Source of the DNA: Stylophora pistillata
Taxonomy: Eukaryota
Direction of reading: 5' to 3'
Assembly: GCF_002571385.2 (NCBI RefSeq)
Contig: NW_019218288.1
Coordinates: 97,362-161,086 of the forward strand
Length of the DNA: 63,725 nt
In this document: one piece after another, positions 906 through 36,905 of the stretch
Position numbering within the stretch: the stretch's first letter is position 1
Layout of the letters: each line of letters starts with the position of its first letter
Made by a program: the position numbers and the translations under genes
Notes under the pieces: generated by a model
What the model saw: the letters and a program-made list of their open reading frames with translations, nothing else
What the model was told of the DNA's origin: nothing
The model's database searches: none

Positions 906-3900
906 ATGTTTCAAAGAGAACGCGGCGAAAATCACGTAACACTGCCATTAACCGACGTGAACAATGACGACGAGGAGCCAAAAGACAATTTCAACTCTTA
1001 CGGAGGTGATGCAAACGATGAAGACGACGCTGAGCCCCAAACGTGGGGAAACAAGACTCAGTACGTGCTGGCAATGTTAGGTTTTTCTGTTGGATTCGGA
1101 AATGTTTGGAGATTCCCTTACTTGTGCCAAAAGAATGGAGGGGGTAAGTTTGTCTGAGTCATGCATTGAGTACATCTAGGCGTGAATGAAAAAGTGATCT
1201 TTTTATGTATGCAGCTGTTAAAACGTCGTTCTTGCTGTACCAGCTTATTGTCATCATTTGCAAGAAATTGAATCGATTGATCAAAATTCTGGGATCTCAG
1301 CGGATAAAAGTGGCAATTAAACTGGCTATGTCGTAAAGAGTGTCAGACCGTGGTAGTGGCTCGAAAAGCGGAATGTTTACAGATTTTGAAAAGAGCAGGA
1401 AATTTGCATAGATCGATATCGAAGCAATAGATAGAGACTCTCGGGGAACAGATCCAAACGGATGGAAACCCCTTCCAACCAATAATGTATATCCAATAAT
1501 CTCACCAGGATCTCTATAAGAATATAAAATTCAATAAAGGAACGAAGAATTTGCGAATAAAGAAACAGAAGAAACGTTGATATCAAAGTGCGTAACGTGC
1601 ATTGTCGATTGTTTCCAAAATACAATGCAATCTCTGTTTCACATTAGTTAACAAACATACTTTAGTATCGTAACCCAGTAAGAGGACCCATGGTTCCATC
1701 TGACAACTCGTTGAAATTAGTGGATTACCAAGGATTGTACCTGCCATCTGTTATCTTGAAACTCCATTTTAAAACCGATAGTCAGTCCATGTTAAGAATG
1801 TTTTTGTTTTAATTTTTAATGGCTGTAAATGCCTCAAACGACGATAATTCGAGTTGGCTGCGGAAAAGGAAAAAGTTTAAGCAGTACATCCGCGTTCAAG
1901 ATTTGTTTTCATCTTAACTGTGAATTTTAAGTGGATCACGCAAATTATACAAAAAAAGTGGTTATACCGGTTTCACATGAATACTAACTAGAGCAATTAC
2001 CACACTTTATTTCATTTTACGACCAAAATAAGCTTGTCTAACAAAAAACAATTGAAGCAGCTGTCCGTGAAGGCGCCACGCACCTTTCTAGATCATGACT
2101 TCGGTTGCTTTCACACGCACCTCATTGTTGACTGATTTGGTGGCGCGAAATTTTTTTAACAATTTTTCATCACAGTGTAATTTTGGTAAGCTTAAGTTTT
2201 AATAAACATTGCTGGGACAGCCGATACATTTGCGAAGCTGAACTCTTCTTTCCTATCGCTTTCATAAAGATTTTTTTAATCATTTAGGGATGCAACATTT
2301 TTATTCTAGGATAATGAACGACTCCACAAATGTTACTGAAATGAGGTACTTAAAACCTTGTGGCCGGCAAACTTCCCTCTCTCTTTCTTCAAGGCCTCCC
2401 TGTGCCCTTCCACCCCATTCTACCAAGATTTTGTACACAGAGATTTCGGTCTCCACAGAAAATACGTGGCTGGTTTAACTAAACCACTAACTTAGTTCAC
2501 CAGGACTGCCACACAATATATAAACCTCCACATTGTCTCGAAGTAACCACAATGTTGGACTGTCCCAGCACGGTGATGTGGTCACTTCGATCGCAGCAGA
2601 ACAAGAAAGAAAACCAGATCTCAAACGGAAATGTTTACTTCTTCTTCAGGTGCATTTTTGATTCCATACTTCATCAGCCTGATCTTTCTCGGAATTCCTC
2701 TTCTATTCATGGAGCTTGCCATCGGCCAAAGCCTCCGTCAAGGTCCTATTGGTGTATGGAAAGCTATTCACCCCTACTTAGGTGGTGTGGGGTTTGCTTC
2801 AGCGGTTGTGTGTGTTCTGATCTCCATGTACTATAACGTGATCATTGGTTGGTGTTTTTATTATTTGTTTGCGTCGTTTCAAGACCCTCTGCCTTATTCT
2901 TCTTGTCCTGTTGGCCCGAATTGCACCGTAAACGAAGAGTGTAAATTGGCAGGGCGGACGCAGTATTACTGGTATACGAAGACGCTTGGGGCAACAACTT
3001 CCATTGAGGATATGGGTGATTTCCAGTGGCATCTGTGTCTTGTGCTTGTATTAGCATGGATTGTTCTGCTGATCATTATCAATCGAGGAGTTCAGTCTGC
3101 TGGAAAGGTAAAGCCTTACGATTCCTGAAACATAGTTACCTCATTCGCTCAAAGCAGTCTGCAGTTTTTAGTGATTAGTTTATGCTCTTCGCAAAGATTT
3201 GGCATTTCTGCTGATCATTCGTCTCTCTTTTCTTAATTCTTAGGCGGTTTATGTCACTGCTACACTGCCATATATTGTTCTGGCTATATTCTTTGTAAGA
3301 GCTGTCACACTAGAGGGATCGGTTGACGGAATCAAACACATGTTTAAGCCTCAGGTAATCAGAAGATGATATTGTTGAATTCTTTCCTGGACTTGCGTGT
3401 TTAAAGGTTTCTTTCTGATCGATGTTCAAGTCAAATTAGGGCTGCAGTTGATTGGTCTAAATGGATGCGAACTTTAAGCTCATGTTTTTTGCCAGGTAAA
3501 AAGGAAAGATCACTAGTAAAATATAGACGAACAGGCTAGACATGACGAAAACAAACTTCTTGTGTTTTAAAGGAATATGTATCCGGTTGTCAGATCTTGA
3601 GTCAACTCAGTTAAGCTTTAATGAAAGAACTTCAGGCTGAAGTTAAATCGTACTCGAAAACAAGCTGTGATTTACCTCCTCATATGATAGTATGGGCCAT
3701 CCTTACTAAGGGTTGAAATGCACGTGAAGTTCAGAACAAAAAATGACTAATGTAAACGTTTCTTTCAGTTTTCCAAGCTAACCAGTCCTGTGGTTTGGTT
3801 AGAAGCCGTAACTCAAGTATTCTTTTCCATCGGTGTTGGCTTTGGTACTTTCATCGCCATGGCAAGTTACAACTCAAAGCATAACAACTGCAAACGAGAC

Positions 3901-6900
3901 GCCATATTTATATCGTTGGCTGACAGTTTTACGGCAGTCTTTGCGGCCCTGGTGGTGTTCTCCGTCCTCGGCTTTAAGGTGAGGTGTAACGATCAATACA
4001 ATTTGAGCGCAAAAAAACTGAAAATAACGAATAAAAAAGCAACCTTTAAGAGGTAGACAATGAAACACATGACAGAGAATTTGTGACTTAGCTGTGCGAT
4101 TGAACGCACGTCTACTTTGCAACTTCTGATGCGGGATACCACTTCTCTGAGGCAAAAATGGTGATGGTGTTAAGTCTTATTTAACAAAAAAATGTGACAA
4201 AGTAAGGTATCAAGTGAGAGGTCATAGACAGCTGTTTCGAGTCTATTGAACCTCAACAGTTTGCTATAACCATTTATATAAAATGTCTGACGGTCAAAGC
4301 AGATTAAACTTGCGGGATGTTACTGTGCAAACCGAGTGTTAACATCAATATCATCGTCGTCGTCGTCATCATCCAAGAGCTGAATGAAATACATCTGTTT
4401 CTGGTCAGTTATTAGAAGCGACCGTAAGATAACGTACACTATGAAATGAGTATCAGCGGAAATAATTTCCCTATAGACTATCATGCACTTCCAAAAAAAC
4501 TTGAATGTTGAAAAAATGGGAATTCTGCTAAGATTTATTGAGTAATAGTGCTTGTCAGGATCACAGTTCAGTTCTGGTGCGCTCACTTTCCTATGCCGGA
4601 ATAGTTATCTTGCCCTCTCTGTCCTATAATACCTAAGGAAAAAACCTTTTGATATTTAAGAGCCTTATTATGGCTGATTACTAATACATGAGTCTATTTC
4701 AGGCTTATCTACCATCTAAATACCAATCACATATGATTTCACTTGCATCTTGCTTATGTTCATAGGCACACGACTCATATACCCAGTGTTTGACACTATA
4801 TGGTGGGGTCAACAATACTAAACTGCCCGCTGAAGTGACGCTTGAGAAACAATGTCATAATCTGGAACACTGGCTATCTAAGGTAAATCAGAGTCCATCG
4901 TTCATCAAAAGAATCTACCATTCGTTCAGATAGACCGGAAGGTCTGTCTGACAAATAAACCGTCTGTCTGACGGACAAATAAACCGACCGACGAACAAAC
5001 GACCGAAGAGAGACAAAGTGAAAAGGGAAACTGTATCAAAAGAATCGTGCCTGTGGTTTTTTCATAACATCATGAGAAAGCTGCATAATTTCTTTTTTTA
5101 CTTGCGTAAGAACAAAATCGAAAGTAATTCTGTTAAAAAAATCATGATAAATTAGAAACGACTATTGCATCTTTTGTCTTAAGACTTTTAAAGGTTCTGG
5201 CCTCACTTTCATTGCCTTTACTGAAGCGATACTGTTGATGCCGGCTTCACCGCTATGGTCTGTTCTTTTCTTCGCCTTGTTGTTGTCTCTTGGTCTTGGT
5301 AGCATGTTCGGTATACTAGAGGGCGTGCTTAACCCGCTACACCAACAGAAGGTACTGCCCCTGCGTAAGGAAATACTAACAGGTCAGTTCTGTTGAGTTG
5401 AGTTGAGTAAACAGCGCGAGATTTCTCGAGGATTCATATGCAGTCGAATTGATTGGCATTCCCATTCATAATAATTCTTGTTCCTTCTTGGTTTACCGTC
5501 AACATTTTTGTATTTTTTCATCATATCTCAAAAATATTTTGTAGTTTCCTTTATCATGAAGTTAAATTTAGTTGAGCGTAAGAAATTGATTTGTTATTGC
5601 GAGCTATAGTTCCTTAAAGGTAACACCGCTGAGTTTTGTGGGAATATCGTAGTGAGCTGCAACGAAAACCTCCTTGCATGACATCGAATCACAATGAGTG
5701 AAATGACCTTGTCTACTTCTGCGTCGTGCATTCGACATCGGCCAGAATTTTAATTTTCTTTGGTTTCAAACAGTCTTCATTTGACCGAAAATTACCTAGC
5801 TACCTGTGTAGTAAGTGAAGTCATGCGGAAAAAAGAATCATGAAAAGTAAAGCAGCTAATTGAGAGACGAGGACTTTATTTTATGACCACGCCGCAGCTG
5901 TTCTTCTCTTTTCTTCTCCTTTCTTCTCTTTTCTTCTCTCTTCTCTTTTCTTCTCTCTTCTTCTCTCTTCTTCTCTTTTCTTCTCTTTTCTTCTCTCTTC
6001 TTCTCTTTTGTTCTCTTTTCTTCGTCAACAAATCAGATGCTAAGCTAGAACAATGTCAAATCCTGTCTAGGTCTTACATGCCTTATTTGTCTGGTTGTTG
6101 GACTGCTATTCTGTCAGACGTCTGGGGAGTACTGGCTGCAGATGTTTGACAGTTTTACTGGAACACTTCCGCTTCTGTTCATCTGTTTCTTCGAACTTAT
6201 TGGAGTTGCATGGGTGTACGGTACTAAGAGGTAAGATCTGGAGCCCGATCGAGTAATAAGCTAATGCCATAAGCTGGAGTTCATCCCATGTGGGCGTGTC
6301 TTAATATGTGGATGTTTGTTTGTTTGTTTTGTTTGTTTGTGAATTTGTTATGACTTCACGTTGCAATATCGCCGCATTATTTAGGCAACAAGTGATGCGA
6401 CTAATTGAAAAATCTAGCTTGTCACTTTTAGAAAACTTTTGGTGTATTATCTTGATGCAACGTCACTGAATTCAAAGCAACCACTGAGAGGAAGTATGAG
6501 ACAATGGTTGGAAAGTTAACCACGTGACTAGCATTTCATTTCTCCCTACAGTATCACCGCTAATTCAAACGATAAAATAGTAATTATTTTTACACGACTC
6601 GGGCAGTCAGAGGGCCAATAACTAAAATCAACCAATCAAAATGCTCTATTGCCGGTCAATATTCTCTCAGTATTGGACCGGGCACTGTCCCGAATGGTCC
6701 CGAATGATACCGCACTTGTGTCCCTTGGAACTTCAGTCGTATAATAAATCTCTTATTAACCAAGCTTGCTCGGGACCGTACTGGAAGAATATCGGCCCTC
6801 GGTCTTTTTTGTACGGACATCGCTGCGCTCGGTCCGTATTGTCAAGACCTCGGGCCGATATTCTCCCAGTGCGGCCCTCGCGCTTGGTTAATAAGATATA

Positions 6901-8529
6901 TCTAAATGAAATGATCGCCAAATACAGAGGCTCGATTGTTAATTAAGTCCTCCTTATCAGCACCATTGCAAAAGTGCAAAGAATAGGCTAGGGTAGAGAA
7001 TATGTTAGAGTGTGGGTTGAGAGTGCTAGTACATGTGTGCCCTGTTCTTTGAAAAGAATTCGTTATTCATCAAACAGAGCCAGGCCAGAGTGAATCCTCC
7101 TCCGGTCTCTGCCGGTTTGTGGTGTCTCTAGCAACGAAGAGTGTTCTTAGGAGCATCTTTTGATTCTTCCAGGTTTTCTGACGATTTAGCGTACATGCTC
7201 CCCGATAGACCCGGATGGTTCTGGATGATAATGTGGAGATTTATGTCTCCTGTGATAGTCTTGGTGATCTTTGTCAGCAGTATAGTTAACATGGCAATGA
7301 AGCCAGCCACGTACTTTGTTTGGAGACCAAATAAGGTGACTGAATGACATTACTGTGTTTCTTTATTTGTACAGTGACGGTGATAAGGAGAAGGGAGGGG
7401 TGGGTCGGGGGTAGAAGACATGGGCGTAATCGTGTTGAGATTGTAGGGTTCCATAGATACTGATTTTATAAAATTTTCCGCGGGAATACTGCGCCACAAA
7501 GTTTCCTCTAAAATCACGTAAAAGATCGACCATTTCTTCGCTGGTTGCAGCGACTAGTTTTGAGTCACAATAGATATCAGTTTGTCTTTTTACTCAAGGT
7601 GACAGTCTGTTTCCGCGCCACACCAAACGCGAACTTTATGTGACAAATACTGTACACGATCACCTTGAAGACCTTTGTAATTGCGAAATCGTGACAAATG
7701 ACAAAGTTCAAGAGTTTCCAGTATTTTAAGAACACAATTTGCTATCCGCGCGGTTTCAGTTAGCTGCACTAGGTGTCCCTTTTCAGACGTCTACAGAAGG
7801 AAAAAGCATCTCTTATCTTTCACGTCCGTCAATTACTGAATATGGAAAGGGAAATTACCATGAATCGAAACTTTGCAGTTTTTAGTGAATAAATTTTCAG
7901 TAGTGGACTATTTTTCAAACTAATTTGAATATATCAACAAAGTTGAAATGGTGAATTGGCCACCGTTACGGTTATAAAAGCTGACGTTTCGAGCGTTAGC
8001 CCTTCGTCGGAGCGAATAGAGGAATTGTGGGTTGTGTGTGCTTTTAAAGGCAGAAAATGGAGCTACGTGATTGGTGGGAACATGGCAACGAGAAAAAATT
8101 TGTTCGTGTTTTTATCGTTGCCATGTCCCCACCAATCACGTAGCTCCATTTTCTGTCTTTAAAAGCACACACAACCCACAATTCCTCTATTCGCTCCGAC
8201 GAAGGGCTAACGCTCGAAACGTCAACTTTTATAACCGTAACCGTGGCCAATTTACCATTTCAACTTTCTTGATATATTCAAATTATTTCGTTACCCCCAC
8301 CGACGCAGCGCCAAACAGTTTCTTTAGAAACTATCAGCCTTTATTCATTTCTATTTTTCAAATTGTATGTTTGTCCGTTTTGATATTTGAGGCGGAAGTG
8401 GAGAGCGTTCAGTACCCCTTCTGGTGTTACCCCATCATTGCTTTCCTCATCTGCGCATCCTGTCTCTGCATACCTGTGGTCTTCCTTGTAAAATCATGTC
8501 AACGTCTTATCGCCAAGAGGAGAGGATAA
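906..8529 (+). CDS. SLC6 Na+-dependent neutral amino acid transporter, B0AT/SLC6A15-20-like, paralog A (9 exons, ~597 aa)
   Basis: Exons 906-1143, 2650-3107, 3244-3354, 3769-3978, 4766-4882, 5184-5382, 6071-6230, 7173-7335, 8392-8529, all GT-AG, 1794 nt in frame. NSS motifs [40 protein letters not shown] and LGLGSMFG. Exons 2-8 have the same sizes as in paralog B. Confidence 0.93.
4221..4320 (-). mobile_element. Degenerate retrozyme-type hammerhead repeat
   Basis: Reverse complement GGTTATAGCAAA CTGTTGA GGTTCAATAGACTC GAAA CAGCTG TC TATGAC: hammerhead layout with palindromic stem III (ACAGCTGT) and a core A6-to-U change. Confidence 0.45.
5900..6023. repeat. Polypyrimidine (TTCTC-like) low-complexity tract
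   Basis: Directly visible, just upstream of the exon-7 acceptor of paralog A. Confidence 0.9.
6586..6900. mobile_element. Non-autonomous double-hairpin repeat (MITE-like), copy 1
   Basis: Closely matches 37835-38150. Two internal inverted repeats: TTACACGACT/AGTCGTATAA and TCTTATTAACCAAGC/GCTTGGTTAATAAGA. Confidence 0.8.
7917..8335. mobile_element. Penelope-like element terminal fragment in inverted duplication (~370-bp palindrome) with a hammerhead motif in each arm
   Basis: Arms ~7917-8091 and ~8115-8288 are near-perfect inverted repeats. Each contains GCT-CCGACGA-AGGGCTAACGCTC-GAAAC-GTC. The same motif recurs at ~9700 and ~60720. Confidence 0.75.
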
Positions 8530-9695
8530 AAACCCACAATCACGTGTTTGTTATGGGTTCACTAACACACTAATGACTAATCTCCACAACCGATTCATCC
8601 TTGTCTCTACCATTAAAAAGTTAATTTGATATCGTGACATTAACTGCACATCTGAGATTCTGTAGACGTTTAAAACATGTGGCTCTTTAAATGTACTAAA
8701 CATTCTGCTACGAAGACCGCAATTTTTAATCTCGCGTGGCAACCCGGCCGCCCGGTTTTGATTTGTCATTCCTACTCCCAAATTTCCATTCCTGGCAGTC
8801 GTTTCGGAAAATTAGGAGTAACCAGAAATAAATAGCCCCTGGAGCTGCACAAAAGGCACTGTAGACTCAAAGCAGCAGTTCTCTTTGAATGGTTGAGGTT
8901 AGCGTGTGCGGCCAGTTACCGAGCTATTAGTAAAACGGCGGCGTCCATGGTCAGATTTTCAACACATTTGAAAAAAAGTTCAGGAGAAATTATAACGTGG
9001 TTAGCGGTAAAGTTTGGATATACTTTGCTCTGGCGGAAATAGAAACTGCGCGTTATGTCCCGAGAGCATTCAGTTTTCCTTACAAGGGCATGAGAAGCCC
9101 GTTTATCTCAGCGCAGGCTTTATTATTGGAGTTGTATAGCAGAGTAAAGTCAAAGTAGTTTCACTGTTTATCATGTGGTTCGTATTTTTTCTTGATTAAA
9201 ACTTTTCGTTCTGTCTCGAACTTATCGTAAAGAGTATCATTGTAAATTTAGATTTAATCATCGGCTACAAGGGCGGAAATGAGTCTCTCTGTGCATTTGC
9301 TTTTCTCCTTACCCTGTTACGATACTGAAAGACGCACTTTTCAAATGACAGCTTCCACTGATTATACTTTTTCTTAATAGAAAGTATTAGTCGAGAAGCC
9401 TTTTACTTAATTTGACACCTTTATTGCACTTTTTAATACCGTTTGTCTGAGGCTGTACAGTTAGTTACATTTGTATTCGTATTATGGTTATTATATAATG
9501 TCAATTAAATCCTCTTTAGTCTGTATATTTGTCATAAAAATACGCTCACGAGTAGTTTAAATTCTGTCAATATCAAGAGCTAAACTTTCTTGACTGATAA
9601 ACTCCAAGCACTACGAGAAAGACATGCGTGGAGTGTAATTTTGGTTTTATAAACTGAGTTGATAATGTAACTTGGCCACCGTAAAGAGTTTCAAA

Positions 9696-9731
9696 GCTGA
9701 CGTTTCGAGCGTTAGCCCTTCGTCAGAGCGA
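9696..9731 (-). ncRNA. Minimal type-I hammerhead ribozyme motif (Penelope-like element type) within repeat 9635-9731
   Basis: Reverse complement GCT CTGACGA A GGGC-TAAC-GCTC GAAAC GTC AGC: CUGANGA/GAAA core, stem II, palindromic ACGU stem III, GUC cleavage triplet and stem I GCU/AGC. Confidence 0.65.
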
Positions 9732-10406
9732 TTGTTAAGTGTAGCTGAAGATAATTATATCTGTGAGTCAATGAGGCGCCGTGGATTTACATAAATTGAC
9801 ACTTTTGAAAACTTTTTGGGAGGAAACTTGTCAAGAAAGTTAAACATATATTGTATAGGCACTTCTACAAAAATCTCAGTGAACTCTCTTCGTCGCGGTA
9901 AGTTCGTTCACACCGGTTTTGTCATGTTATTTCATATTAAGTCCTGAAAAACGTAAATCAAATCAATTGGACATCATTTAAACTCTCATCAAGCACCCTC
10001 CTCGTATTTGTAAAAATCATGGAAATTCTCTTGTTACGATTCAAATGTTCCTGGCCGTCAGTCATCAGAAAACATCCGTGCTGATGAAATATTTACACAT
10101 GAACCTCTATTGTAGGATCGTGAACGAACTATTACATGTTACTTGAGAGGGTTTTAAATTGATAATACCCAGTTGTATTTCACGATCGCCGATACCAAAC
10201 GGTTCCTAGTTGTTTTTACATAGATGGTCTAAAATCACGTTTAGCGCGCTTCTCTGTTCACAAAGGAATTATTTTTCAAACCAGTCAAACTGGTTTTTGT
10301 GTTTTGGGAAAACTGGTTTCTATTTATTCTTCGTCCCTCGCTTTATGAGCCTTCAGACGAATTGTGTCTTTGAGCCTTGGCGCGTATTCAGAGCGATGCG
10401 ATCGTA

Positions 10407-13400
10407 ATGCCAAGACAAGATAGAAAAGGCGACGGTTTAGTAACTCTGAATCTAACAGCCAGCCCTGAGAATGGGTACGATGAAGCGGAAGAGGGCAAGC
10501 TCGATTTCGACAGAGACGCAGCAAGCGAGGAGGTGGATGTGGTAAAACCGCAGACTTGGGGAAACAAAGCTGAATATATTCTCGCTACTATCGGGTTCGC
10601 GGTTGGATTTGGGAATTTATGGAGATTTCCGTATTTATGTCAGAAAAATGGAGGAGGTAGGGAGAGATTTAATGGATTTCAAATTGAGTCATGATACCGC
10701 GTCTGCGGTCATGAAACTACTAATTTACTATGTAAATTGCGGCGAAGGAGGGAAAATCGTCACTCACTGATAGTTCCCTTCCGTTAGCTCAATGATTCCT
10801 GCTTGGAATTAAAACGCAATAGTTCGTATTATTTGGTTTTACTTCCTTTACCATTTCTGCTTTAGGTTCTTGGGCCATGTTTTTTTTTTTTTTTTATTGA
10901 CGGATTAAATAATTTCCTTTTAGGAAAGCACATGTAAAAGAACAATAACGTTCACAAAATTCGAGAGCCCCTGACGCCCTGTTGAGATAAGAAATCGCAT
11001 TAGAAAAACTAGCCTTATTAAAATAAAATCAGCGCACTTTTAGAGCTGTTATAGCCTTAGATATCACGTTAGTAATGTTTTGTTCCATCTTAAGTTTAGC
11101 TGTACCCGTCGCTCCATGGCTCGATTTTTTAAGCCAGTCATCTTTTGAAAAAAAAAGCAATTGATTGAAAATTGGCAAACTGACCGCTAGTAAGTTATTC
11201 TCCATTGTTTCCCTGGAAATACTTGGTGGAATTGCAAATACATCAGATCGGAAGCAACGTCGAACAACAGCTGACAAAAAGAGCAACTTTACGGCTAGAT
11301 AAAATGACAAAGCTCACGCGCCTTTCAAAATTTAATCACATGCACATGTCGAGGAGTCCCGCATTGCTCTTTTTAATTACTAGATTTACTCTCTTGCTCT
11401 TCGAACAAAAAAAGAAAAACCGATGAAAATCGCACCTCCTTTGAAGCAGTGTAACCGAAAAAAAGAACTCGGTATCTCAGATTATCCTAGCGAAATTGTG
11501 ATGTCCGTGCAATGAACCTTACTAACACGGCTGGAACGATGAATGCAAATTTTACGCTCGTCAGACGGTAACTCCTGGTAACAATAGGTCGACAGGACAT
11601 TTACACAACAGGTTATATCTGTAAAAACAAATACCATAGAAAGAACACGGTTTGCCTTCTTTTCAATATGTCACTCCACTAGCCTTTTGCTGTATAGCTT
11701 TAAAATTTCGTTTTAAAAGAATTCTTGTGATACTAAGACGCTGCTAGATGGAGTTAGCTGGGATCACCTAATAGCCGTTCAAAAAGTTAACCGTAAAAAT
11801 TTTTCCTATTTTCGACGTGTCATTTGTAAAATGTCAAAATGCAATGTTCCAAATTTAAGAAGGTATAATATTCTTTAACACTCCCAAAAAAGTGAAACTC
11901 GAAACTCTTTTAACGTATGCAATTTGCCTCAAAGTATTTTTCCTTTTGAACAGTTTCAATCCAAAATAATTTTTATGCGATTGAAAAGTGTATACGAAGA
12001 AGAAGTGATTTTGAAAAGCATTTAACAATAAAAAATTGCGCTAAAACTTTTCTTAAAATCATTTTAAGATTAAAAAATTAAAAAATTTCTAAAAGTGTAT
12101 CTTTGTATCGCATGCAATCATCTTTATTCGATCCGGCGGCCTCCAGCAAATGTTTTAGCGAGTCGGAACCCTTTCACGTATAAGTTTCTCTTTTTTTCCT
12201 TTATATTGGAAAGGGTTGTGCATGCAATACACGCAAAATCGTCATCAGTTCACAGAACTGTTTCCATAATTTATGCTTTGGTTGGACCAAGCTCTTTTTC
12301 AAAACCAAAAATGGAAGTTTATTATTTCGGTTTGTGACTAAAACGATACTAAATCTCTACATGTGGGCAGAGAGGCATGGCTAGTTTGACCATTCATGTC
12401 TTCTCTAATCAAAGTTATTTTTCATTTCTTCCATAAAAGGTGCGTTTCTAATTCCATACTTCATCAGCCTGATCCTCCTGGGGATTCCTCTCTTCTTCCT
12501 CGAGCTTGCCATCGGCCAAGGCCTCCGTCAGGGTCCCATCGGTGTGTGGAAAGCTATTCATCCCTACCTGGGTGGTGTGGGGCTGGCTTCGGTGGTCGTA
12601 TGCGTCCTGATCTCTATGTACTACAACATGATCATTGCATGGTGTTTCTATTATCTTTTTGTGTCGTTTCAAGACCCCCTCCCGTACTCTACTTGCCCCA
12701 GCGGCGTGAACTGTACGGTGAATGAGGAATGCAAACTGGCCGGTCGAACACAGTATTTCTGGTACACTAAAGCCCTTGGTACAACAACCTCCATCGAGGA
12801 TATGGGTGATTTCCAGTGGCATCTTTGCCTTGCACTAGTGTTGGCATGGATTGTTCTGTTTTTGTTTGTCAGCCGTGGTGTCCAGTCTGCCGGAAAGGTA
12901 AAACATTAATAAGCCTTGCCAGTTAGAGTGGTTCTCTCAGGAAGAAAAGCAAGGCCGTTGTCTGAAGACGACTCCGTTTTGTGTTTTGTTTTTGTAAACC
13001 TTTGAGAGTTATCTAAGTTCTCATTTGTTTATAGGCGTTGTATGTCACTGCCACCTTACCATATATCGTGCTGGCCATCTTCTTTGGTAGAGCTGTTACA
13101 TTGAAGGGGTCATTAGATGGAATCATACACATGTTCAAACCTCAGGTAATTATCGGAAAACCGTGTTCATTTCTACTGTTAAACCTTTGCAAAAGGACAC
13201 TCACTACAGGCAGACTCCTCAGATTGGAGCATTTTTCACGAGTCAGAAGTGATCGACAAAGCACACAGTCTATAGGGTATTGTGCGAGTCAGTGGGGGAG
13301 AGGGTCAAAATTCCATCCCGATGGTGGATACAGTTTAGAAATAACATTTCCTGGTGGCCGGGAACCATTCTGATTGATTTCTCAATTCTCTTCATAAATG

Positions 13401-16400
13401 AATAGTTGTACCTATTTGGCCGATCAGTATGGACTGTGTGACCTCCATTTTTACTTTAAAGAACTTGGCCCGATTACTATAGCCGTAGTTTAGAAAGTGA
13501 GCCCACGTTCGAGAATATCATCGAAGACCGAACTCGCCCAAACGGGAGAAATCGAGCCTAACAAAGAACTGATTATTATCGGCATAATGAGGCATCAAAC
13601 ATCTGAAGTAACATGCGTACCTGGAGAATTTGTGTGGGCCAAAAGCCAAAGCAACGAGCAGCGAAGCTCTGAAAGGCTTGGTAAGGAAGACGGGTCTTCA
13701 GAACAGGACTTTTTCTTATTGTCGGCTTCGAAAATAAAAAAGCGCCTGTTATGCAGGCTACCACAAAAGTAGAGTATGTTATTGTGTGCGCATAGTGTAA
13801 ACAACTTATAGAAAATATGAGATGATTTTTCCCGATCTTTAACTCCGCTTTATCTCAACATTTAGTTCTCCAGATTGACTTCACCTTTAGTATGGCTAGA
13901 GGCTGCAACTCAAGTGTTTTTTTCTGTTGGTGTTGGTTTTGGGACCCTCATTGCGATGGCAAGTTACAACCCAGTACATAACAACTGTCGGCGAGATGCC
14001 ATTCTTATTTCTTTGACTGATAGTTTGACCTCAGTCTTTGCTGCTGTTGTTGTTTTCTCCGTTCTCGGCTTCAAGGTGAGGTTTCGGCCTGGAAAGGTAG
14101 ATTTCTACCACACAAGTGAGCAAAAGGAACGGGAGAACGACTCACCCCGATAGCGTGTCAGGCGACTGGACTCGTTATGCGTTGGGATATTGCACGTAGT
14201 AAAAAGAAATGTGCAGTTCACTTAGTTACCAGGTTGAGGTTATAATAACATGTTTCTGCTGTAGTTGTTGTCGTCCGAGAACGGTTACAAGATTTTAATT
14301 CAAGTTTTTCAGCGTAAATAATTCAAAAAGACATTCTTCGTGTAGCTTCCGATGCGCTCTTTGTGACAATGTCAAAAAAATGCTTTTATCATTGGGCGTA
14401 ATTGAACCCTTTCATGATTAAAGAAAGAAAAAATGACTGCAAGACTACCAATTTGTTGGCATCTTGATTACCTCACTGCGCCATTCTCGTAATACTTTCG
14501 TCGAGAAAAAACACGAGACGCCCTATTGAAGCTAGTTTCTAGGACACTGCTCATTCCTCTGAGAGGACTCCAATGGAAAAGATTTTCAAATAGTTTTCTT
14601 TTTCTTTTTTGACAAACAAATTCGTTTGACTTTATTTTCGTAGGCACATGGATCGTACGACGAATGTTTGAGTCTATACGGTGGCGCAAACAATACTCAC
14701 CTTCCACTTGGAATAACAATTGAGGAAAAATGCCATAATCTAACATATTGGCTTTCTGAGGTAAGGATCTAAATAGTGGCAATAAAAGTGAACGAAGATG
14801 TTCAACAAGTAAATTTTTACTAATGTCTTCTCAGAAATTCGAAAATCAGGAAATTAATCCAAATTAAAGGACAAAATCAATAGTCTCTTGCTTCGAACCT
14901 CTACGACTGAATTGATTAGGATAGTACTGAAATATCAGTCTCGGCACAAACCTTCATTTTTTAAATGAATTTCCTTATCAGTCGTTTCAAGGTCCTGGCC
15001 TGACGTTCATAGCTTTCACTGAAGCCATCCTGAAGCTTCCCTTGTCTCCACTGTGGTCTGTGCTATTCTTCTCCATGTTGTTGTCTCTCGGGCTCGGGAG
15101 CATGTTCGGTATACTGGAGGGTGTGCTTAATTCCCTGCACGACCAGAGGTTGATTCCTCTGCGAAAAGAAGTACTGACAGGTAAATTAAGTTTTACTAAC
15201 TTTTTAGCCAAGTAACATAACAGAATTTCCATTTTGTGATATATTTTTTTCATTTGAGACTAAGAAAACCGTGAAGACTGATTTGATTCTTACCAGTCAA
15301 TAATACGCCGACTACCCAAAACAAACTTCAAGACACAAGAGCAAACCTCGAATCCAAAAACTAACCACCGCTCCTGTTTGCGTTTAGTTAATTGACACCC
15401 GATTGACTTTTTCCTTTTCTAACACAATACGCCATAAAACGTGGAGAAAATGCACGCAGCTAGCCTAAAGCGTGAAGAAAAACCTTGAACAACCATGTCG
15501 GCTTATACCATGATCTTTGAGTGACTGCTAGTCTCCTTTGCAGCCACGGTTTGTTGGTGGAAAGAGAAAGCGTTGTGTGACAAGACCAACCAAAGGCTGC
15601 GAAGGAGACGAGGTGAAAGTAGGAGTCCATAAACATCGTAATGGGCTCCTAGTAAATGGTTACGGATGTGATCTGTAACGAAAATAAAAAATTGGAAAAA
15701 AAAACGGGGAACACTTTGCACATTCCAGATGACAAAATATATAAGCTTATAAAAACACATTTTGTTGTCAGGTCTAACGTGTCTTGTGTGTCTGGCGGTT
15801 GGACTGCTCTTCTGTCAGACGTCAGGAGAGTACTGGCTGCAGATGTTTGACAGCTTTACAGGAACACTTCCGCTTCTGTTCATCTGCTTCTTTGAACTTG
15901 TTGGTGTTTCATGGGTCTACGGCGCCAACAGGTAATTATGGAAAGATAACGCTGTAATTTCATCCAAGGTTTGAAACAGCAAACGTTTCATTATTTAATG
16001 GAATAATTCATTGGGGCGGGAGTGGAAAAAAGAGTTCTTGTGATCCCAGTCCGCATGGTGGTATGGCCATCTTCACTGACCCAATGAAACAAATAACTAA
16101 CCAAGCAAGTAAAGGTCAGAAAAGACTTCATTGGAAGTAAATGTAAGAATAAACTATGGGTGGTACTCATGTAATAAATGTTTCTCGCCCATGCAGAGAT
16201 TATTCGCCGCAGATCGTCTGAAGCTATGCGCCAGTGATTAGCGCAGATTTAGGAAACAATAAGGTTTCTAAAAAGTTCATTTCTCTTGCTATCAGACACA
16301 CCTTTACCTGTGGTGTCAATTTATACAGAACAATTATCCCCCTGCACTAACATTCTTTCACTGGATACTCAGAACGATCGGCAACACAGTTCTAAACTAT

Positions 16401-17308
16401 CTTTCGCGCTTTGATTTGCAGGTTTTACGACGACATCGAGTACATGCTCCACATACGACCTGGCTTGTACTGGAAAATAACTTGGAGATTTGTGTCCCCT
16501 TCGATAGTTTTGGTCATCTTTGTCTGGAGCGTGTTAAACCTTGGACTAAAACCGATTACTTATTCGGTTTGGAACAGCAAGGAGGTACCGACAACACTTC
16601 CTCGAATATCTGCATAAAACGGAAGTTGGGGGCTTTGGGCAGAGCATTTCAATAACCCGTCATATTATAAACGAGCAGGGGACTGGGAACGAATTCTTTA
16701 TTTCATCAAATGAAAAGGCTTTGCCCGTCGCTGGGAATAAAAGTCTGTTTACTCAGTTGAATTTTTTTCATAACACATAAACATAGTAAATGTGGAACGA
16801 TTCGGACGTCCCTCTAATCCATACTAATCTTTCGTCAGAACAAATCATCACACGAAATTAGTGGAGAGAGGATGGCGTTATACAGTAAGATAAGATAAAA
16901 CCCTCGCTCGGTTTCTGCCATCCTCGTCGAGCCTGGTCATAGTTTGAATGGCTTTAGTTAACTAACAAAGGCATTACAAAAACGTGCCTTTCATCCTTTC
17001 ATGACTGCATAATCAAACAGTATTGTTTACTGAGATTATCGATAATTTCTAGAGGATTATAATTCATAAAAAACTATTGACAACTCCTTTTTCTTTAATT
17101 TCAGGGCGACGTCAAGAATGTGGAGTTTCCTAGTTGGTGTTTCTTTGTCATTGTGTTTCTCATCTGCGCCTCTTGTCTTTGTATACCAGCGGTGTTCTTT
17201 CTAAGACTGTACCAAAGAGTGACCTCAACGAGAAGGAGAGGTACGGAGATTGTGCGTGACTTGCTGGAATCGTCTGCAAAGAAACCGCCTGAGAAGAACA
17301 CAGAATGA
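10407..17308 (+). CDS. SLC6 neutral amino acid transporter, paralog B (9 exons, ~623 aa)
   Basis: Exons 10407-10656, 12440-12897, 13035-13145, 13866-14075, 14644-14760, 14982-15180, 15772-15931, 16422-16584, 17105-17308; 1872 nt in frame. Motifs [26 protein letters not shown] and LGLGSMFG. Confidence 0.94.
15529..15611. mobile_element. Very short MITE-like hairpin
   Basis: TAGTCTCCTTTGCAGCC ... GGCTGCGAAGGAGACGA inverted termini. Confidence 0.55.
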
Positions 17309-25480: not shown

Positions 25481-25742
25481 ATGGCCAAAGAAGAGGATCT
25501 TGAGTATTCGGACACCAAGAAGATAGCCTTCAACGTCGAGACCGAGGAAATTGAGGAGATCAATAACCCGCATCCGACCACCGACATTGAAAGTAATGGA
25601 GTAACCGTGCGTATCTACGAAGCTGATAGCGACCGTGGCAAGTGGGGCAATCAAATCGAGTTCGTTCTCGCAGCCATCGGATTTGCGGTTGGTCTTGGAA
25701 ATGTATGGCGTTTTCCCTACCTTTGCCAGAAAAATGGTGGAG
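25481..25742 (+). CDS. Alternative (duplicated) first coding exon 1a of SLC6 paralog C: N-terminus plus TM1
   Basis: MAKEEDLE...[34 protein letters not shown] ending at a phase-1 donor G|GTAAT, with an upstream acceptor ttgcag at 25441. No exon-2 homolog appears before 31427. Confidence 0.85.
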
Positions 25743-27346
25743 GTAATATGGCCTTTTCTTTACTACTTGTTTTGTCGGCATCTAAGTAAAATCTTTCCAC
25801 TAAGATGTTTACTGGTAGTAAAATGAATGCACAAGAAAAAGTTTTGAAGAAAAAAATCTGACCATTTCCCTAGCTACGAAATTATCTATGTATTTCACAT
25901 GTGAATTCTGTTTCTACGGAGAGTACTTTTTCAGGTGTATTCATCGTGTTAAAACGTGATATTTTTAATTCATCAATGGAACCTTCCGCATGATAAATTG
26001 ACTAATTTTACGACCAGGACGGAACAAAAGTTTTCGCTTTATTTTTGTTCTGAAATTCCTGTTCGAATTGAATTTTTAAGCTTTATCACTTTTGTAGGAC
26101 TGATTATGCTTCACGACGTCTCTTTTCTGCTCTTATCCATTTTCTCCTTGTATTCTATTTACAAGTAAACAGAGCTTGTCCGCCATTCATTCGCATTTGA
26201 CCACAATGACGAAGTGAAAAATAGCGATTCCAAAATACGCCATCATTCGACTAAGTGTATGTATTTCTTGAATATTTATTCTGCTATATTTCAACAAAAA
26301 CTTAAATTCGAAAACATTTTATGAAAATATGAGAAAATAGAAAAGAAACTGTGAATTAAATACTACGCCACAAATTCACCTAAATCGATTTGCATGACCG
26401 CGAACGCAGTTAGTCATAAAATATAACTATCCTCACGCATAATAAAATAAAGTGGATTTACGGAGAAAAAAATCGCCGTTTATTCCTCACTCTTCTTTCT
26501 ACCTCAAGGCTCTTTTTCAAGCCCATCACTACCACAAGAAAATCGAAGTGACGTTTTTCGCCTGTGCTATTGTAAGAACAAAATGTTCAGTTTTCCTCGT
26601 CGATCTCGTTTTCCGGCTAACTTCTGTTAGCTTGTTATCAGTAGTTATTTCACCATAAATTCTTATCAATCACAAAAATCTTTTTAATTCTGTATCGTTA
26701 ACTCAAATCAAAAGGGCGAGTATTTCGAATAACAGAGGGCAATTTATTTTTCCTTAATCAATGACTTTTACGCCAACGTTCAATATCACGTGTATTTGTT
26801 TACGTTTTTTTTCTTCCCGCCATTAATTTCGAGCGCTATGTATCATGTGACGGGGAACTTCTTTGGGCGACGAGTTGCAGCAGTAATCGGCATACTTTGT
26901 TTTTCACTGTTTTACCTCAGCGGCCACTTTTTCAGTTCACTTTTAGAGAACATAAAAGGAAGAAAAATATCTATTTTTAAATCGAAAGCCTCTTTTCATC
27001 ATTTTTTTTTTCTTAGCCATCAGGAATGATGTGATTCAGTACATCTGGAAAAAAATTATCAACCAATTTTTACCACTTTTAAAAAGAGTAATAAAACTAT
27101 CTCCCCTTCTCCCAAAAAGAGACAGAAATGGTATTGTCATTTCGGAAAGCCTAGGACCAAACTGGTGTTGATTGTGTTGCTAGCTTAATTCAGCCATATC
27201 TAAACCGTGATCTTCCTAAGTTCAAAGAGAAATCAGAGGAAAATCTTGAAAATTGGGCGGACTTATTCTCAAGACTTCTTTTCGCCACAATTTTGGGATT
27301 CCTAGGACTATAGTCCATAAGTTGTGGGATCAAGTTATTGACATAA

Positions 27347-27898
27347 GGGAGCATTCATTATTTATGGGAGGGGGTGGGCTGGCAAGATTTTCAGTGAGAC
27401 TAAATAACAAAATATCCTGACTCCGCTCTATGAGAATTAAAAATGTCATGACCCCTCTAGTGGTAATTGCAAAAATAGCGAGCCCCCCTCCCCCCCAAGA
27501 CTATCAAAGCAGCTAGGTTAAAAGAAGTGAAAAATATCTTTCAGATATTTAGTGTTGTTGCAGAAACACCTTGAAAATACAGTTCTAGAGTTTAAAATCT
27601 AAAGTTGATGTAAAATGGGTGACATGATATAAGAGATATCCTATGTTACTGTGTCCAGCTTGGTATGGTACTGTCTGCAAAGTTAGCTATTGTTCCTTAT
27701 ATCTTCAATGGTGGGTAGTAGAAATGTTCTACAAACTTAAACCTACATTTGTAGATGATATGTAATAAAAAAAGCTTTTGACCCCCCTACATTATTCCCA
27801 AATTTGTCTAATGACCCCCCATTTTAGTTCCTGAATTTATCATGACCCCCCCATTATTCTTGCCAGCCCTCCCCCCGCCATAAATAATGTAGGCTCCC
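27347..27898. mobile_element. Tourist/PIF-Harbinger-like MITE
   Basis: TIRs GGGAGCATTCATTATTTATGG / CCATAAATAATGTAGGCTCCC flanked by a TAA target-site duplication (27344-27346, 27899-27901). Confidence 0.8.
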
Positions 27899-28893
27899 TA
27901 AAGGTATATTGAATTTCGTATACCTTACAACCTTGTTTGCATGTGGTTTAAATTTTCAGTGTGGTATACAAACGGCTATCTCTTGTCTACTTGAATACAA
28001 ACGTAAGTTGGGGCAAACGGAAACTGCTCTCATTCACATATGCAAAGGGAACTAACGAGTCAACTTGAATACGGAAGTTGTGTTTCCCCCGCTGTTATGA
28101 AATCGGACAGTAAAAATTATTGTTACAAGAGTGCGTATAGAGTCTTTTACAAAATTAAAAGCAAACGCGTACACAATAAAGGCCGAAAGAATATCTTCAA
28201 ACTTACCTCGGTTCTTGTTTTATTCTCGTCTTGTTCTAACTGGAAGGTAGTAGGCAGGAGATTCGAAGTAAATGTTCTAGTTACGGAGCGGAGACGAATT
28301 TCCACGATCGAATTTGGGCTGGAATATTCAATTTGTTTGGAGAGCGTTTTTTAAATTATCCAGAACTCTGCAGACTACCTCCCAACAGGCTTGAACCGAT
28401 GTCACCGTAAGTCTACAACACAACACTGGTTAACAAACTGTTTCAAAACGAAAAGAAAGCCTGTAAAGTTGCACCTCTTTTGTCTAGAAATGTTTAACCA
28501 ACTGACCATTGTGCGCGAAGAAACAAATAAAATGTAAATATCAAATAAATTAGCTGGGAAAATCGCGGCATAAAGATTGGCACCTGTCAATTATGAGCTT
28601 GTAATGTACGAGTGGTTTCCTTTTAGTTCATTCAGACTTTAGAATTTTACGAGCAGTGCACTTGTATTTTTCACTGCAAAGAAGTCGGATCATCATTATA
28701 TGGTGTGATTTAGTGCTTTTCTACGAGAAAAAAGTTGCTCAAGGGAACGAAAGATTCCAGAAGTCATGAATGAAATTTGATCTTTCCACGTGCATCACAT
28801 CCTTCACTGTTTGTTTTCATATGCCCCTCAGAGGTGAAGCAAGTGTGCAGTTGATAATCGTCCGTTCGCTGAGCTAGAGGTTCCTTTCCAGTC

Positions 28894-31800
28894 ATGTCTC
28901 GTGCAAATTTAAAGGATGGCGTCGTAAATTTAACTGTCACGGAAACTCGGGGGAAAAATTTAGAAGTCCCGGAACAAAAATCAGCCAAAAACAGCGATGT
29001 TGTACCAGAGGTAGCTGTGGCGGACGAAAGAGGAGGATGGGGAAACAAGATAGAATTCATTTTGGCCACTGTTGGCTTCGCGGTCGGTCTTGGAAACATA
29101 TGGAGATTTCCTTATCTGTGCCAGAAAAGCGGAGGAGGTATTTTATCTGACATCAGTTCTTGGCTGAGGCCTTTTTGTCTGGGGCAAACCTCAAAATGTA
29201 ATCGGTTGAAAGGTTACTAAAACCATGGAGGTCCACCCCCGATTATTATTAATCACAGGTTAAAATTGGCGGACCGGCAATCTTATTTGTATTGTTGGTA
29301 ATTGAATAACGCCTGTTTCAAAATTTTTCGGGTGGAAGATTTTATTTTACCTCCTTTGGTCTGAAGAAATTTACGCATGAAAATTATATTCAAAAGAAAT
29401 TTGAGATCAGACCGGCCCATTGACGCTAAATTAATAGCATGAGTACTTGAAAATCGTGTTTGAGATATCTTATTAGCCGTGTTTTACTGTTTTACTTGGT
29501 GAACTTCATTGTTTAGTTTTAGCTATTTAGAAGCAGAAGGCGAAACGGATCAAAGTAATTTCTTTTGAAATTAGACCTGCGTGCGACACGTATTCGCTCG
29601 TTTAGATGCAAACGATTTTGATGTTTGTTTAGCTCAAGTACGTCTGCCTGATTTTATCAACGATAAATATTTCCTCCACAAAATACGAAGAAACGCTTTA
29701 TCCAAAACAAACTGCGTGTCTCGCTTATCTCGGATAATTTTGTTTTTGTCGATTGCTTGTGTTCATATTCACGCCAAAATTCCCGCGGCAACTACTTCAT
29801 TGATTTTGTGTTGTTTACCTTTTAAAACTAGAGCTTCTCACAAAATTTTCGGACGGTTGATATAGTAAAATACTTGCATACTAAACAAATGGTTTGGTCT
29901 GCTGTTGATCGGATTTTTGAGGGCTTAGAATGGTGCTCTTGAGGCAGTCACGCTCTTGGACGTGTGTGACTGGACTATGTTAAGGCTCTTTTGTGACAAG
30001 CCGCAACCCGCTACCCGCTTTTGTTTTGCCCAATATGTTTCGCGACAATATTTCACTATGGTTTTGAAAATAAATTTATTTGTGAAGTGACTGTTATTAT
30101 TGTCAAATATTGTACTCATGGTCGCTTTGTTTGGTCACGTTAATCTTTGGTTATAACAGGATATTTATCAACAGATAAGCATAAATTAAATTTGGACCAG
30201 AATCTCTTGGCACTGAATTTTGATTAGGCAGTTCAAAGGCTAATTGCTGTTTCCTGACGGCCAGGTATTCACAAGAGGTCAAACTTGGACCACTGCTTCG
30301 AATAATCTTTTAAAGTGATTTTTCCTTGGTTGGATCAACACTGTTCACAGTAATCAACATTTATATGAACCTTGAGGCTAACATGAAGATGGTTAACAAG
30401 GTTTTGCACAGTGAAACTGAACTTTGTATCTTGTGGGAGTTATGCTCTGAAAATTGTTTCCTCAGAAGATCAATATTTACTTTGTTTACATTGTTTTATG
30501 GCAAAACAGATAAGAGACAGTCATATTTGGTTGTGCTAAAAACTCGCAATAACTCTTTTGTGATTAACCTAAGGACTTTTCGCACCAAAATATTTATAGT
30601 CACAAAAATATCAATCAGTGGATTTTTCTATCTTTTTAGTTTGTCAATGCTATATGTGCAGAAAGGTGCCCTGAAGATGGGCCTACTACTTTTAACTGTG
30701 TTTCTTAAAGGAATTTTTTATTCACGGCTTTGTCTCTTTACTGGCAGTGTACATGTCTTTACTAATAAATAACATTCCAGAATTTACTTCAGTCTGTCAA
30801 TTTGAAAGAGAGATTTGCCAGAGGACCTTAGCAGAATGATCACAGTCATCAATAGTTCATATTCCACACAATGTTTGGTTATAAAGGTTCAGTAACTGAC
30901 GGTCATCAAATATGATTCGCTGAAATTTAAATTTAACAAAATTAAAAATGATCTTGATGTTGTATAACTGTTCAAAACATTCAAGTAATGTGATAATTGA
31001 GCTTTTGTGAGTTTTTTGACAATGAGCCCAAAAGAACAATTGTTTTCTCATACTGTGTAATTTTGCATTGAAAATCAAAGATGAGACTTTGATGTGTTCA
31101 GAACAGGGGTAGTTCTATAAAACTTATTGCAGCAAGAGAGTCAAAGACATGTAAATTGTGGCAAGAAACACAAAAGGACTCCCCCATTCCTTTCTAAGAA
31201 CCCATAACATGTGGTTTGGTTGCTCAAACATGAATAAAATACAACAAAGAAGGTGCCCTGTTGCTACTCAAGTCCCAAACCTGCTTCTGAATACAATTAG
31301 ACTGTGTTTTCTAATGCATTACATTTTTGTCTTTGTTAGCTCATACAATAATTACCAGTAAATGATTATGAGTCACTACTTATACAAAACATGTTTTAGT
31401 CTAACAGAACTATTTTTCATTTACAGGTGCATTTTTGATTCCATACTTCCTGAGTCTTTTCCTCATTGGTATCCCACTGTTCTTCCTTGAGCTCGCCATT
31501 GGCCAGAGTCTGCGACAGGGATCTGTTGGAGTATGGAATGCCATTCACCCATACCTTGGAGGTGTTGGTTATGCCTGTGTTGTTGTCTGTCTGCTTGTGG
31601 GAATGTACTACAACATGGTCATTTCCTGGTGCTTCTATTATCTGTTTGCATCATTTCAAGACCCTCTGCCATATGCTGAGTGCCCCCGACTGGATAATGG
31701 TACATTGCATGAAGAGTGTGAGCAGGCTGGTCATACACAGTTCTATTGGTACAGAAAAGCCCTTGATGTAACTCCCTCAATTGAGGAGAGTGGAGGTCTT

Positions 31801-34800: not shown

Positions 34801-36905
34801 AATTTTAATCAAGGTTTCTATATTTCTTTGTTCAGAAGCTGTTTTAAGATAATTTTCTCAATTCTTCTTAGAGCATTCAGTCATCAAATAGTAAACAAAT
34901 GGAATTAATCTGAATTTTATTTTAAAACTTTCAGATTTGCAATTAAATTTCACCGTAACCCTCGGTTATCTTAACCTACATTTAAACAACCCAGCCTCTA
35001 ACCTCTTACCACATACCACACTGTTCACACTGTGACTCTCGCTTGGTTTAGTTGGTGACTTTTCCTCTAATTTTGTAGTCTGCATCTGGCCCTGGTCTGA
35101 CATTCATTGCTTTCACTGAGGCCATTGTTAAAATGCCTGCCTCACCTCTCTGGTCTGTGCTGTTCTTTACCATGTTACTGACCCTTGGACTTGGCAGCAT
35201 GTTTGGAACTCTGGAAGGAGTCATCACTCCCTTTTATGACATGAAAATTGTGCCATGGAGGAAAGAGATCATGACTGGTATGTGTCTTGGTTGTTATAGT
35301 AACTGTTGTGTGTTTAGTGCTACCAAAATGACGTCCTAAATGTCCAGATTATGCAGTACAGTATCTCATCAGTGATTAGGAATCTGCTTTGTCATATCAT
35401 GTTCATCAGAGTGTGGGTATCATGAGGTAGAGAATGTTGTGAGATAATTAGAAAGCTTTTACGGCTCTCCTAGTTTGGTCACTGTGGGGATAACTGGTAA
35501 TGTTAACATAACATAACGAATAGGATTTATTTGTAGGTATCATCTGTGTCTTCTGTTACATCGTTGGGTTACTGTTTACCCAGCATTCTGGACAATACTG
35601 GCTCCAGATGTTCGATAATTACTGTGCTACTCTGCCTCTGCTGTTCATTGGCCTGTTTGAACTTGTTGGTGTGAGTTACATCTATACAATTGAAAGGTGA
35701 GAGTACACCCCAATATAGGAAGAGCCATGATTGGAGGTGTTTGTTTTGTATGTGTGGCTTTTCTGCAAAGTGGCTCTGACATCTTGATCTTTTCTCCACA
35801 ACAGGTTTGAAGATGACATACAGTACATGATTGGCTTCAGGCCACATCCATATTGGAGGATCTGCTGGCGCTATATATCACCTTTCCTCATTTCTGTTAT
35901 TCTCATTGCTAGCATCATTAATCTAGCAATCACGCCCATGACATATACAGCATGGGATCCTAAACTTGTGAGTGTTCAGGCCAATTTTTTCTTTGTCAAT
36001 CTAAACTATAAAAAAATTCTTAAGCATGATTGGTTATTGGCAGCATGATTTTAACACTAGTAGGATAGTCAATGCATCATCCTTGTAACTGGACATTGTA
36101 ATAGAACAGTTTTTCTGCTCTGTAGTCATTCAAATTTGTCGATTAGTGGTACATGGAATCCACTACATCCTATTCTTGAATTGAAAGAAGCACAAATCTT
36201 TGATCACAGACCAACTACATGGTCAAAAGGTCACAATAGCAGCTAGAAGTTGTAGAAAAACTACAAAGAAGCACAGATAGAAAAAAATTATGAAAATACA
36301 GAAGAGCCAAAAGATTTTATTCCAAGGGGGAAGAAGGATACTTAAGGAAGGGTAAACAGTTAGCTTTAAGAAAGAAATTATTACAACTACAGAAAGAGGA
36401 CAAGACATCGGTGAGGTTTGCATTACAAACTTAATCGTGTGCTTAAACTGTCCACACAACAAAATGGACATAGTTACAGTTATCAACTTGCAAAAATATT
36501 AGTATTTGTTTGCATGGAACTTGTAACATTTCACAAGCAGACAAAGATTAGGTGATAAATGTGATTTAAAGGGGTTACAGGCATAATTATTTTTACATGA
36601 TATATGTAGGTGAAAACCAAATTAACCTTTTTTCCTCTGTTTGGTGTTTTCAGTTCAAGACAGCAGACTTGAGCTATCCTGGATGGGGCTATGCTGTCAT
36701 TGTCCTCCTTATAGCAACATCAGTGCTCTTCATTCCTATTTTTGCATTGCTGCGCTATTTTGGGATCTTGAAATACAAGAAGCCAATGCCTCAACAGAGT
36801 GCGGGTGACCGTATTCCCCCAGGATCAATCACTCCATCACTGTCTCGTGTCCCCCTGCCACCCATGGAAGTACCACTGTCTGGAACTCGAGATGATGAGG
36901 ATTAA
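28894..36905 (+). CDS. SLC6 neutral amino acid transporter, paralog C (exon 1b form ~635 aa; exon 1a form ~641 aa)
   Basis: Exons 28894-29137, 31427-31884, 32172-32282, 32707-32916, 33576-33686, 35079-35277, 35537-35696, 35805-35967, 36654-36905; 1908 nt in frame. Motifs [42 protein letters not shown] and [12 protein letters not shown]. Confidence 0.94.
33208..33370. mobile_element. Degenerate MITE-like repeat
   Basis: Imperfect inverted ends GGGGCGGATTCAGG / CCTGGATCTGCTTC. Confidence 0.45.
33921..34543. mobile_element. MITE with ~8-bp TSD (hAT-like)
   Basis: TIRs GGGTGTGTTTAAAACACGAAATGGCGAAATGACGAAATGG / CCATTTCGTCGTTTCACCGTTTCATGTTTTAAACACGCCC; direct flanks TTTTCAGC at 33913-33920 and 34544-34551. 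Confidence 0.82.
34758..34997. mobile_element. Degenerate MITE-like repeat
   Basis: Imperfect inverted ends GGCCCAGTTGTTCAAA / TTTAAACAACCCAGCC. Confidence 0.5.

Follow-up and report, generated by a model that had tools for sequence, protein, structure and literature searches.

Chloride coupling in the SLC6 family depends on a small set of residues around the first sodium site (Na1). The ligands of Na1 and of chloride include the equivalents of SERT N368 and S372 (LeuT N286 and E290) (PMC6141625, PMC6829555), and in human SIT1 chloride is held by Tyr47, Gln247, Ser251, Asn283 and Ser287 (PMC10491607). The transporters TuriSERT, Tyt1 and MhsT are chloride-independent and carry an Asp here, TuriSERT and Tyt1 at the SERT N368-type Asn position and MhsT in the corresponding chloride site; their mutants D262N, D259N and D263N, respectively, become chloride-dependent, and H+ antiport is diminished in Tyt1 D259N and MhsT D263N (PMC10707687). 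A carboxylate at the Ser four residues further on (the +4 position) abolishes the chloride requirement of GlyT1, SERT, DAT and GAT1 (bioRxiv 10.1101/2020.08.20.259572). In KAAT1, K+ acceptance is tied to D338 in combination with Lys102, by which D338 is positioned to coordinate Na+/K+, and with the triplet Ala66-Thr67-Ser68 in the first transmembrane segment (TM1), and chloride dependence is weak but real (PMC8310414). Here we describe three tandem SLC6 genes, A, B and C, from the coral Stylophora pistillata. They lie in a window of 63,725 nucleotides (contig NW_019218288.1, positions 97,362 to 161,086, forward strand). A and B encode an Asp at this site in TM7 and are probably Na+-driven symporters of neutral amino acids that need little chloride, a reading that draws on the analogy with the Asp-bearing transporters.

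Three tandem genes and their ion site

906..8529, + strand: gene A, SLC6 transporter of the B0AT/SIT1 clade, 597 aa, 9 exons (906-1143, 2650-3107, 3244-3354, 3769-3978, 4766-4882, 5184-5382, 6071-6230, 7173-7335, 8392-8529)
10407..17308, + strand: gene B, 623 aa, 9 exons (10407-10656, 12440-12897, 13035-13145, 13866-14075, 14644-14760, 14982-15180, 15772-15931, 16422-16584, 17105-17308)
25481..36905, + strand: gene C, the Asn-type paralog, with alternative first exons (25481-25742, 28894-29137) and shared exons (31427-31884, 32172-32282, 32707-32916, 33576-33686, 35079-35277, 35537-35696, 35805-35967, 36654-36905)

Exon models built with coral proteins as guides give three intact spliced nine-exon SLC6 genes with GT-AG introns and identical intron phases. 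The spliced models agree with the annotated Stylophora pistillata proteins at 597 of 597 residues for A (P0159) and 623 of 623 for B (P0161), and those of C are identical to P0486/P0488. A and B share 74% identity (nonsynonymous divergence dN 0.175, synonymous divergence dS 1.42), and either one shares 57-59% with C. Among the RNA-contig matches listed, all eight introns of A are spliced in two of four runs (X6, X14) and all those of C in one of four, and for B one contig of 2114 letters contains both exon 2 and the last exon; contig depth is unsuitable for ranking expression, and runs X2 and X10 are apparently one data set. None of these listed matches has a variant at the Asp codons, which is not proof of absence.

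All three are transporters of the B0AT/SIT1 clade (SLC6A15-20) and not of the KAAT1 clade. The Pfam SNF domain (PF00209) spans the full length (E 4e-172 and 2e-173), and A and B group with SLC6A15/18/19 orthologues in a 16-row clade with a support of 100 in the Shimodaira-Hasegawa-like approximate likelihood-ratio test (SH-aLRT); both trees were computed quickly with IQ-TREE, supported by SH-aLRT only and without bootstrap. An AlphaFold model of P0159 based on a 108-row alignment has a predicted local distance difference test score (pLDDT) of 89.7, superseding a single-sequence fold of pLDDT 45, and its best fold matches are SIT1 and B0AT1 (template modelling scores 0.84-0.88 in Foldseek, 0.87 for SIT1).

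The residues on which the argument turns are the following.

3922..3924, + strand: Asp321 of A (GAC), TM7 Na1/chloride site (SIT1 N283, GAT1 N327, SERT N368, LeuT N286)
3934..3936, + strand: Ala325 of A (GCA), at the chloride-coordinating Ser position (SIT1 S287, GAT1 S331)
14019..14021, + strand: Asp325 of B (GAT), equivalent to Asp321 of A; Ser329 is retained four residues on (14031-14033)
32860..32862, + strand: TM7 Asn of C (AAT), with Ser four residues on and a complete SIT1-like Tyr/Gln/Ser/Asn/Ser chloride site
3814..3834, + strand: TM6 of A, with the retained chloride/Na1 ligands Gln285 and Ser289 and with Gly291 (SIT1 Gly253, proline-permissive), placed by alignment (PMC11217458)
2694..2696, + strand: Ile95 of A in TM2, at the KAAT1 Lys102/TnaT Val56 position by offset from the numbering of PMC8310414, so that the Asp has no positive partner (coordinate computed from the exon model)
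1086..1088, + strand: Ser61 of A (LeuT/SIT1 Ala22, KAAT1 Ser68), Ser in A-like copies and Ala in B and C (coordinate computed from exon 1)

An ungapped alignment matches the TM6-TM7 exon of A to human SIT1 and B0AT1, and the match to GAT1 covers ranges of equal length (1-69 versus 276-344), so that exon residue 52 corresponds to SIT1 N283/GAT1 N327 and residue 56 to SIT1 S287/GAT1 S331. The original prediction had placed an Asp at the GAT1 N327/SERT N368 position in A and B, an Asn in C and an Ala four residues on in A alone; the codons agree in every instance, and in the comparison with SIT1, B0AT1 and GAT1 the Asp did not fall elsewhere. It is neither a sequencing error nor chance, since A and B use different codons, the models equal public proteins and Asp is present in 38 of 38 coral sequences of the A/B clade, a count that is partly selected because these were drawn from clusters with Asp representatives. 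Apart from the Asp, A retains the Na1/chloride ligands Asn66, Tyr86, Gln285 and Ser289. C has the ligand set of the chloride-dependent neurotransmitter:sodium symporters (NSS), namely Tyr/Gln/Ser/Asn/Ser; the corresponding residues are Tyr, Gln, Ser, Asp and Ala in A and Tyr, Gln, Ser, Asp and Ser in B.

The conserved Na1 and substrate residues predict Na+-coupled transport of neutral or imino acids by A and B. In SIT1, Gly253 and Asn410 govern the preference for proline and the exclusion of long side chains (PMC11217458). These map to Gly291 and Ile422, which together with Phe60 predict proline and larger hydrophobic neutral amino acids as substrates; the Porites B protein has a Ser at position 291.

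Some further features of these genes deserve mention. The two first exons of C each encode their own TM1, which is part of the Na+/substrate site. Both joints were seen in run X6 (the short side being 28 letters), and annotated isoform pairs differing solely in the first-exon part were found in six of six pairs checked (Pocillopora, Orbicella, Oculina, Exaiptasia, Actinia and Nematostella). Part of exon 8 of A recurs, inverted and degenerate, in intron 1 of A (2445-2537, reverse, against 7227-7331; 69% over 105 bases), and high-copy repeats within and after gene A (~6590-6940, 7920-8350 and 9690-9730) attract thousands of RNA contigs.

Origin and distribution of the Asp

In an alignment of 127 rows, Asp occupies the TM7 site in 15, which are 14 coral A/B-type sequences and one outgroup row, and in no B0AT-type row of a vertebrate or insect; the statement in PMC8310414 that B0AT1 and B0AT2 orthologues mostly have Asp is therefore not borne out in this alignment. 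The Asp-bearing sequences from corals group in a single clade (27 rows, SH-aLRT 100) with members from Pocillopora, Stylophora, Orbicella, Oculina, Desmophyllum, Porites, Acropora and Montipora, the sister of which is a Nematostella/Actinia pair with Asn (SH-aLRT 97). The A/B-type duplicate therefore predates the coral-anemone split, and the Asp arose once, more recently, in the stem lineage of stony corals, when C had already branched off but A and B had yet to diverge. The proposal that the ion site changed after duplication thus stands as regards a change specific to the A/B lineage, but this change came later than the duplication that separated A/B from C, the duplicate still having Asn in anemones. 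The stony-coral stem has 24 diagnostic near-invariant columns, Asp321 among them. The other 23 introduce no basic residue (Lys, Arg, His) into the membrane core, and the one basic change among them, at position 590, is near the C-terminus. The remaining readable TM7 exons of the Stylophora pistillata genome all encode Asn.

The replacement of the chloride-coordinating Ser by Ala in A is real but confined to the A copy of pocilloporids, with 3 of the 38 rows of the coral clade. The Ser is retained in the other 35 and the Tyr/Gln/Ser ligands in all 38. Since Ala at this position also occurs together with Asn in 17 of the 127 aligned rows, mostly insects, it has little weight by itself.

Sequence comparison indicates that the Asn-to-Asp swap is recurrent in the SLC6 family. 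Asp is found in 17 of the 150 best SLC6 representatives (four have no aligned residue), the named carriers being a clam, a mussel, an abalone, tardigrades, a centipede, a horsehair worm and a rotifer, and a 26-row SLC6 tree requires four changes at the site. The presence of Asp had been called characteristic of KAAT1; it actually marks, besides these representatives, the wider invertebrate clade of nutrient amino acid transporters (NAT), with 82 of 120 NAT-type matches. A joint clade of the coral and NAT-type Asp proteins was rejected by the approximately unbiased (AU) test (p-AU 5.7e-56, log-likelihood lower by 226.5), and the coral Asp is convergent with that of KAAT1.

Several related sequences were encountered on the way. 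A clam protein from Mactra antiquata (P0231), inside the B0AT clade, has an independent Asn-to-Asp change. An Acropora digitifera isoform X1 (P0003) is B-type in its first half and C-type in its second, likely an annotation fusing tandem genes, and was excluded from the trees. A fourth tandem paralog with a TM7 Asn lies upstream of the window (G000:C503:76397-85350, L021-L022) and looks like a pseudogene because of in-frame stops and frame changes within exons; the Desmophyllum protein P0047 used as query matches its exons at 53-100%. Four further B0AT-like paralogs (L005, L006 and L009 on G000:C25, L007 on C81) all have the TM7 Asn, and TM1 of L009 is divergent.

Chloride, protons, other cations and the site of action

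We put the probability that A and B are Na+-driven neutral amino acid symporters, largely independent of chloride, at about 0.62, by analogy with the TuriSERT, Tyt1 and MhsT mutants and with the carboxylate introduced into GlyT1. The TM7 Asp would provide the negative charge that bound chloride gives in relatives, with the carboxylate of Asp321 coordinating Na1 and repelling chloride. SERT N368D is also reported to be chloride-independent; the wording of a review (PMC6141625) is ambiguous on this point. That an acidic residue at the TM7 site can stand in for chloride, as the original prediction held, is supported by the three reversions described above (PMC10707687). In pocilloporid A the +4 Ser may have been lost because the site was relaxed once it had ceased to bind chloride. 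C keeps all five SIT1 chloride ligands and is predicted to be stimulated by chloride in the manner of SIT1. Since the Asp has no Lys partner, Asp321 may be protonated on the return step, with amino acid and Na+ moving in and H+ moving out as in Tyt1 and MhsT. Such H+ counter-transport by A and B is a tentative proposal, the odds being somewhat against it. It is a good deal less likely that the stony-coral stem re-invented the bacterial Tyt1/MhsT mechanism as a whole, an unpaired TM7 Asp replacing chloride and exporting a proton per cycle. If this were true, alkaline fluids, for instance seawater or the calcifying medium, would give amino acid uptake a stronger drive, and the scavenging of amino acids for nutrition or matrix would be tied to coral pH control.

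A number of points weigh against chloride independence of A and B. KAAT1 and CAATCH1 have the Asp yet lose up to half of their uptake without chloride, and in TnaT the Asn-to-Asp change required a V56K suppressor, though TnaT has a second Asp (PMC8310414). The SIT1 current falls by just ~40% when chloride is removed (PMC10491607). Human B0AT1, B0AT2 and NTT4 are chloride-independent via other changes (PMC6590891), and B0AT1 and the alignment rows named B0AT2 have Asn at the TM7 site, so that this site alone does not set the phenotype, and dependence on chloride may have been weak already in the ancestor. The Asp may also be part of a general divergence, as 23 further columns changed on the same long branch. 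Finally, seawater and the extracellular fluids of corals are rich in chloride, so that the benefit of chloride independence is unclear.

The Asp could be of little effect, A, B and C being partially chloride-dependent alike and the divergence of A and B concerning substrate choice or expression. The partial chloride dependence of KAAT1 (PMC8310414), the chloride-independent Asn members of the B0AT clade (PMC6590891) and the conservation of the other ligands in the coral clade are compatible with this, as are the pocket residues Phe64, Gly291, Gly293 and Ile422, which differ from C and are common to the anemone sister genes. We nevertheless consider it unlikely in view of the three natural Asp carriers that gain chloride dependence on reversion (PMC10707687) and of the invariance of the Asp in robust and complex corals. 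It is improbable that A, more than B, takes K+ or another cation as driver in KAAT1 fashion, although KAAT1 D338 mutants change cation selectivity (PMC8310414). The comparison was made via named NAT1-like and related matches and the numbering of that paper (Thr67 being LeuT 21) rather than with KAAT1's own sequence. At the Lys102 position (95 in A), Lys or Arg is present in 81 of the 82 Asp-bearing and 0 of the 38 Asn-bearing NAT-type matches, against Ile in 38 of 38 coral sequences; an Asp without such a TM2 partner occurs in 13 of the 150 SLC6 representatives and is therefore not unique to corals. The KAAT1 TM1 triplet reads Gly-Phe-Ser in A and Gly-Phe-Ala in B, the Thr67 equivalent being Phe or Tyr in corals, and the sole match is the Ser of A. 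This Ser, one of only four fixed A-versus-B differences, leaves a small chance of an altered cation preference in A, but it is present as well in B0AT2 and in insect Asn-type relatives, and coral fluids are Na+-rich and K+-poor. K+ coupling of A and B is hence unlikely, and the label KAAT1-like has to be dropped with respect to both descent and mechanism, the partner for K+/Na+ coupling being absent.

An adaptation to the symbiosome membrane, one of the compartments originally proposed, could be suspected, the majority of Asp carriers being symbiotic reef corals. We regard it as very improbable. Desmophyllum pertusum has no algal symbionts, and the Asp form is found in this species (P0044); calcifying tissue, epidermis or gut would therefore fit better. 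The match found in Exaiptasia is C-type with Asn (no search for A/B copies was made there), and an acid lumen would work against H+ counter-transport. Gene ontology terms for amino acid import that include SLC6 genes are enriched in the oral epidermis of Pocillopora acuta, with no paralog named (PMC13581030). Three transcripts of the SLC6A15-20 type show a 3.3-3.9-fold enrichment in whole colony relative to the oral fraction of Tubastraea, again with no paralog named (PMC9357087).

Significance and comparison with described transporters

A literature search, with most subscription papers outside its coverage, listed no study on the function of B0AT-type SLC6 genes in corals or on the ion coupling of A, B or C, and a search by accession gave no papers. 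The surprise is limited, the substitution as such being familiar and recurrent. However, one tandem array offers a natural matched set (Asp-Ala, Asp-Ser and Asn-Ser, plus the anemone Asn orthologues) suited to asking whether, in an animal SLC6 transporter, one residue determines the coupling to chloride and protons. If coupling has changed, it would be an innovation in amino acid uptake on the stony-coral stem. Elsewhere in the window, 45473-52950 holds a gene with multiple CUB domains (Pfam CUB matches) and apparently one membrane segment, and at 57533-63318 an open frame of 612 codons precedes exons that by eye resemble leucine-rich repeats; the two pieces tested gave no Pfam match.

The closest sequence and fold matches of the coral proteins are human SIT1 (SLC6A20) and B0AT1 (SLC6A19), at 43-45% identity. 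They have in common the Na1 ligands, the TM2 and TM6 chloride ligands (SIT1), the Gly at SIT1 253 and a weak Na2 position (Gly417). The corals differ in having Asp for the TM7 Asn and Ile for Asn410/Asn435 in the side-chain pocket, and A lacks the +4 Ser. CcSLC6_NAT1 of the cnidarian Cyanea capillata clusters with B0/IMINO transporters, and its chloride independence is likewise argued from sequence, but it retains the TM7 Asn and differs at the TM6 Ser position (Thr309) (PMC6590891). Manduca KAAT1/CAATCH1 and the invertebrate NAT-SLC6 clade share the Asp at LeuT 286, and A also the Ser at LeuT 22, although they form a separate clade and the corals lack the TM2 Lys102 partner and Thr67. With their natural Asp at the Na1/chloride-site Asn, the bacterial Tyt1, MhsT and TuriSERT (PMC10707687) may serve as a working model for chloride independence and H+ antiport; they are prokaryotic and distant, and the coral proteins are likened to them by published description.

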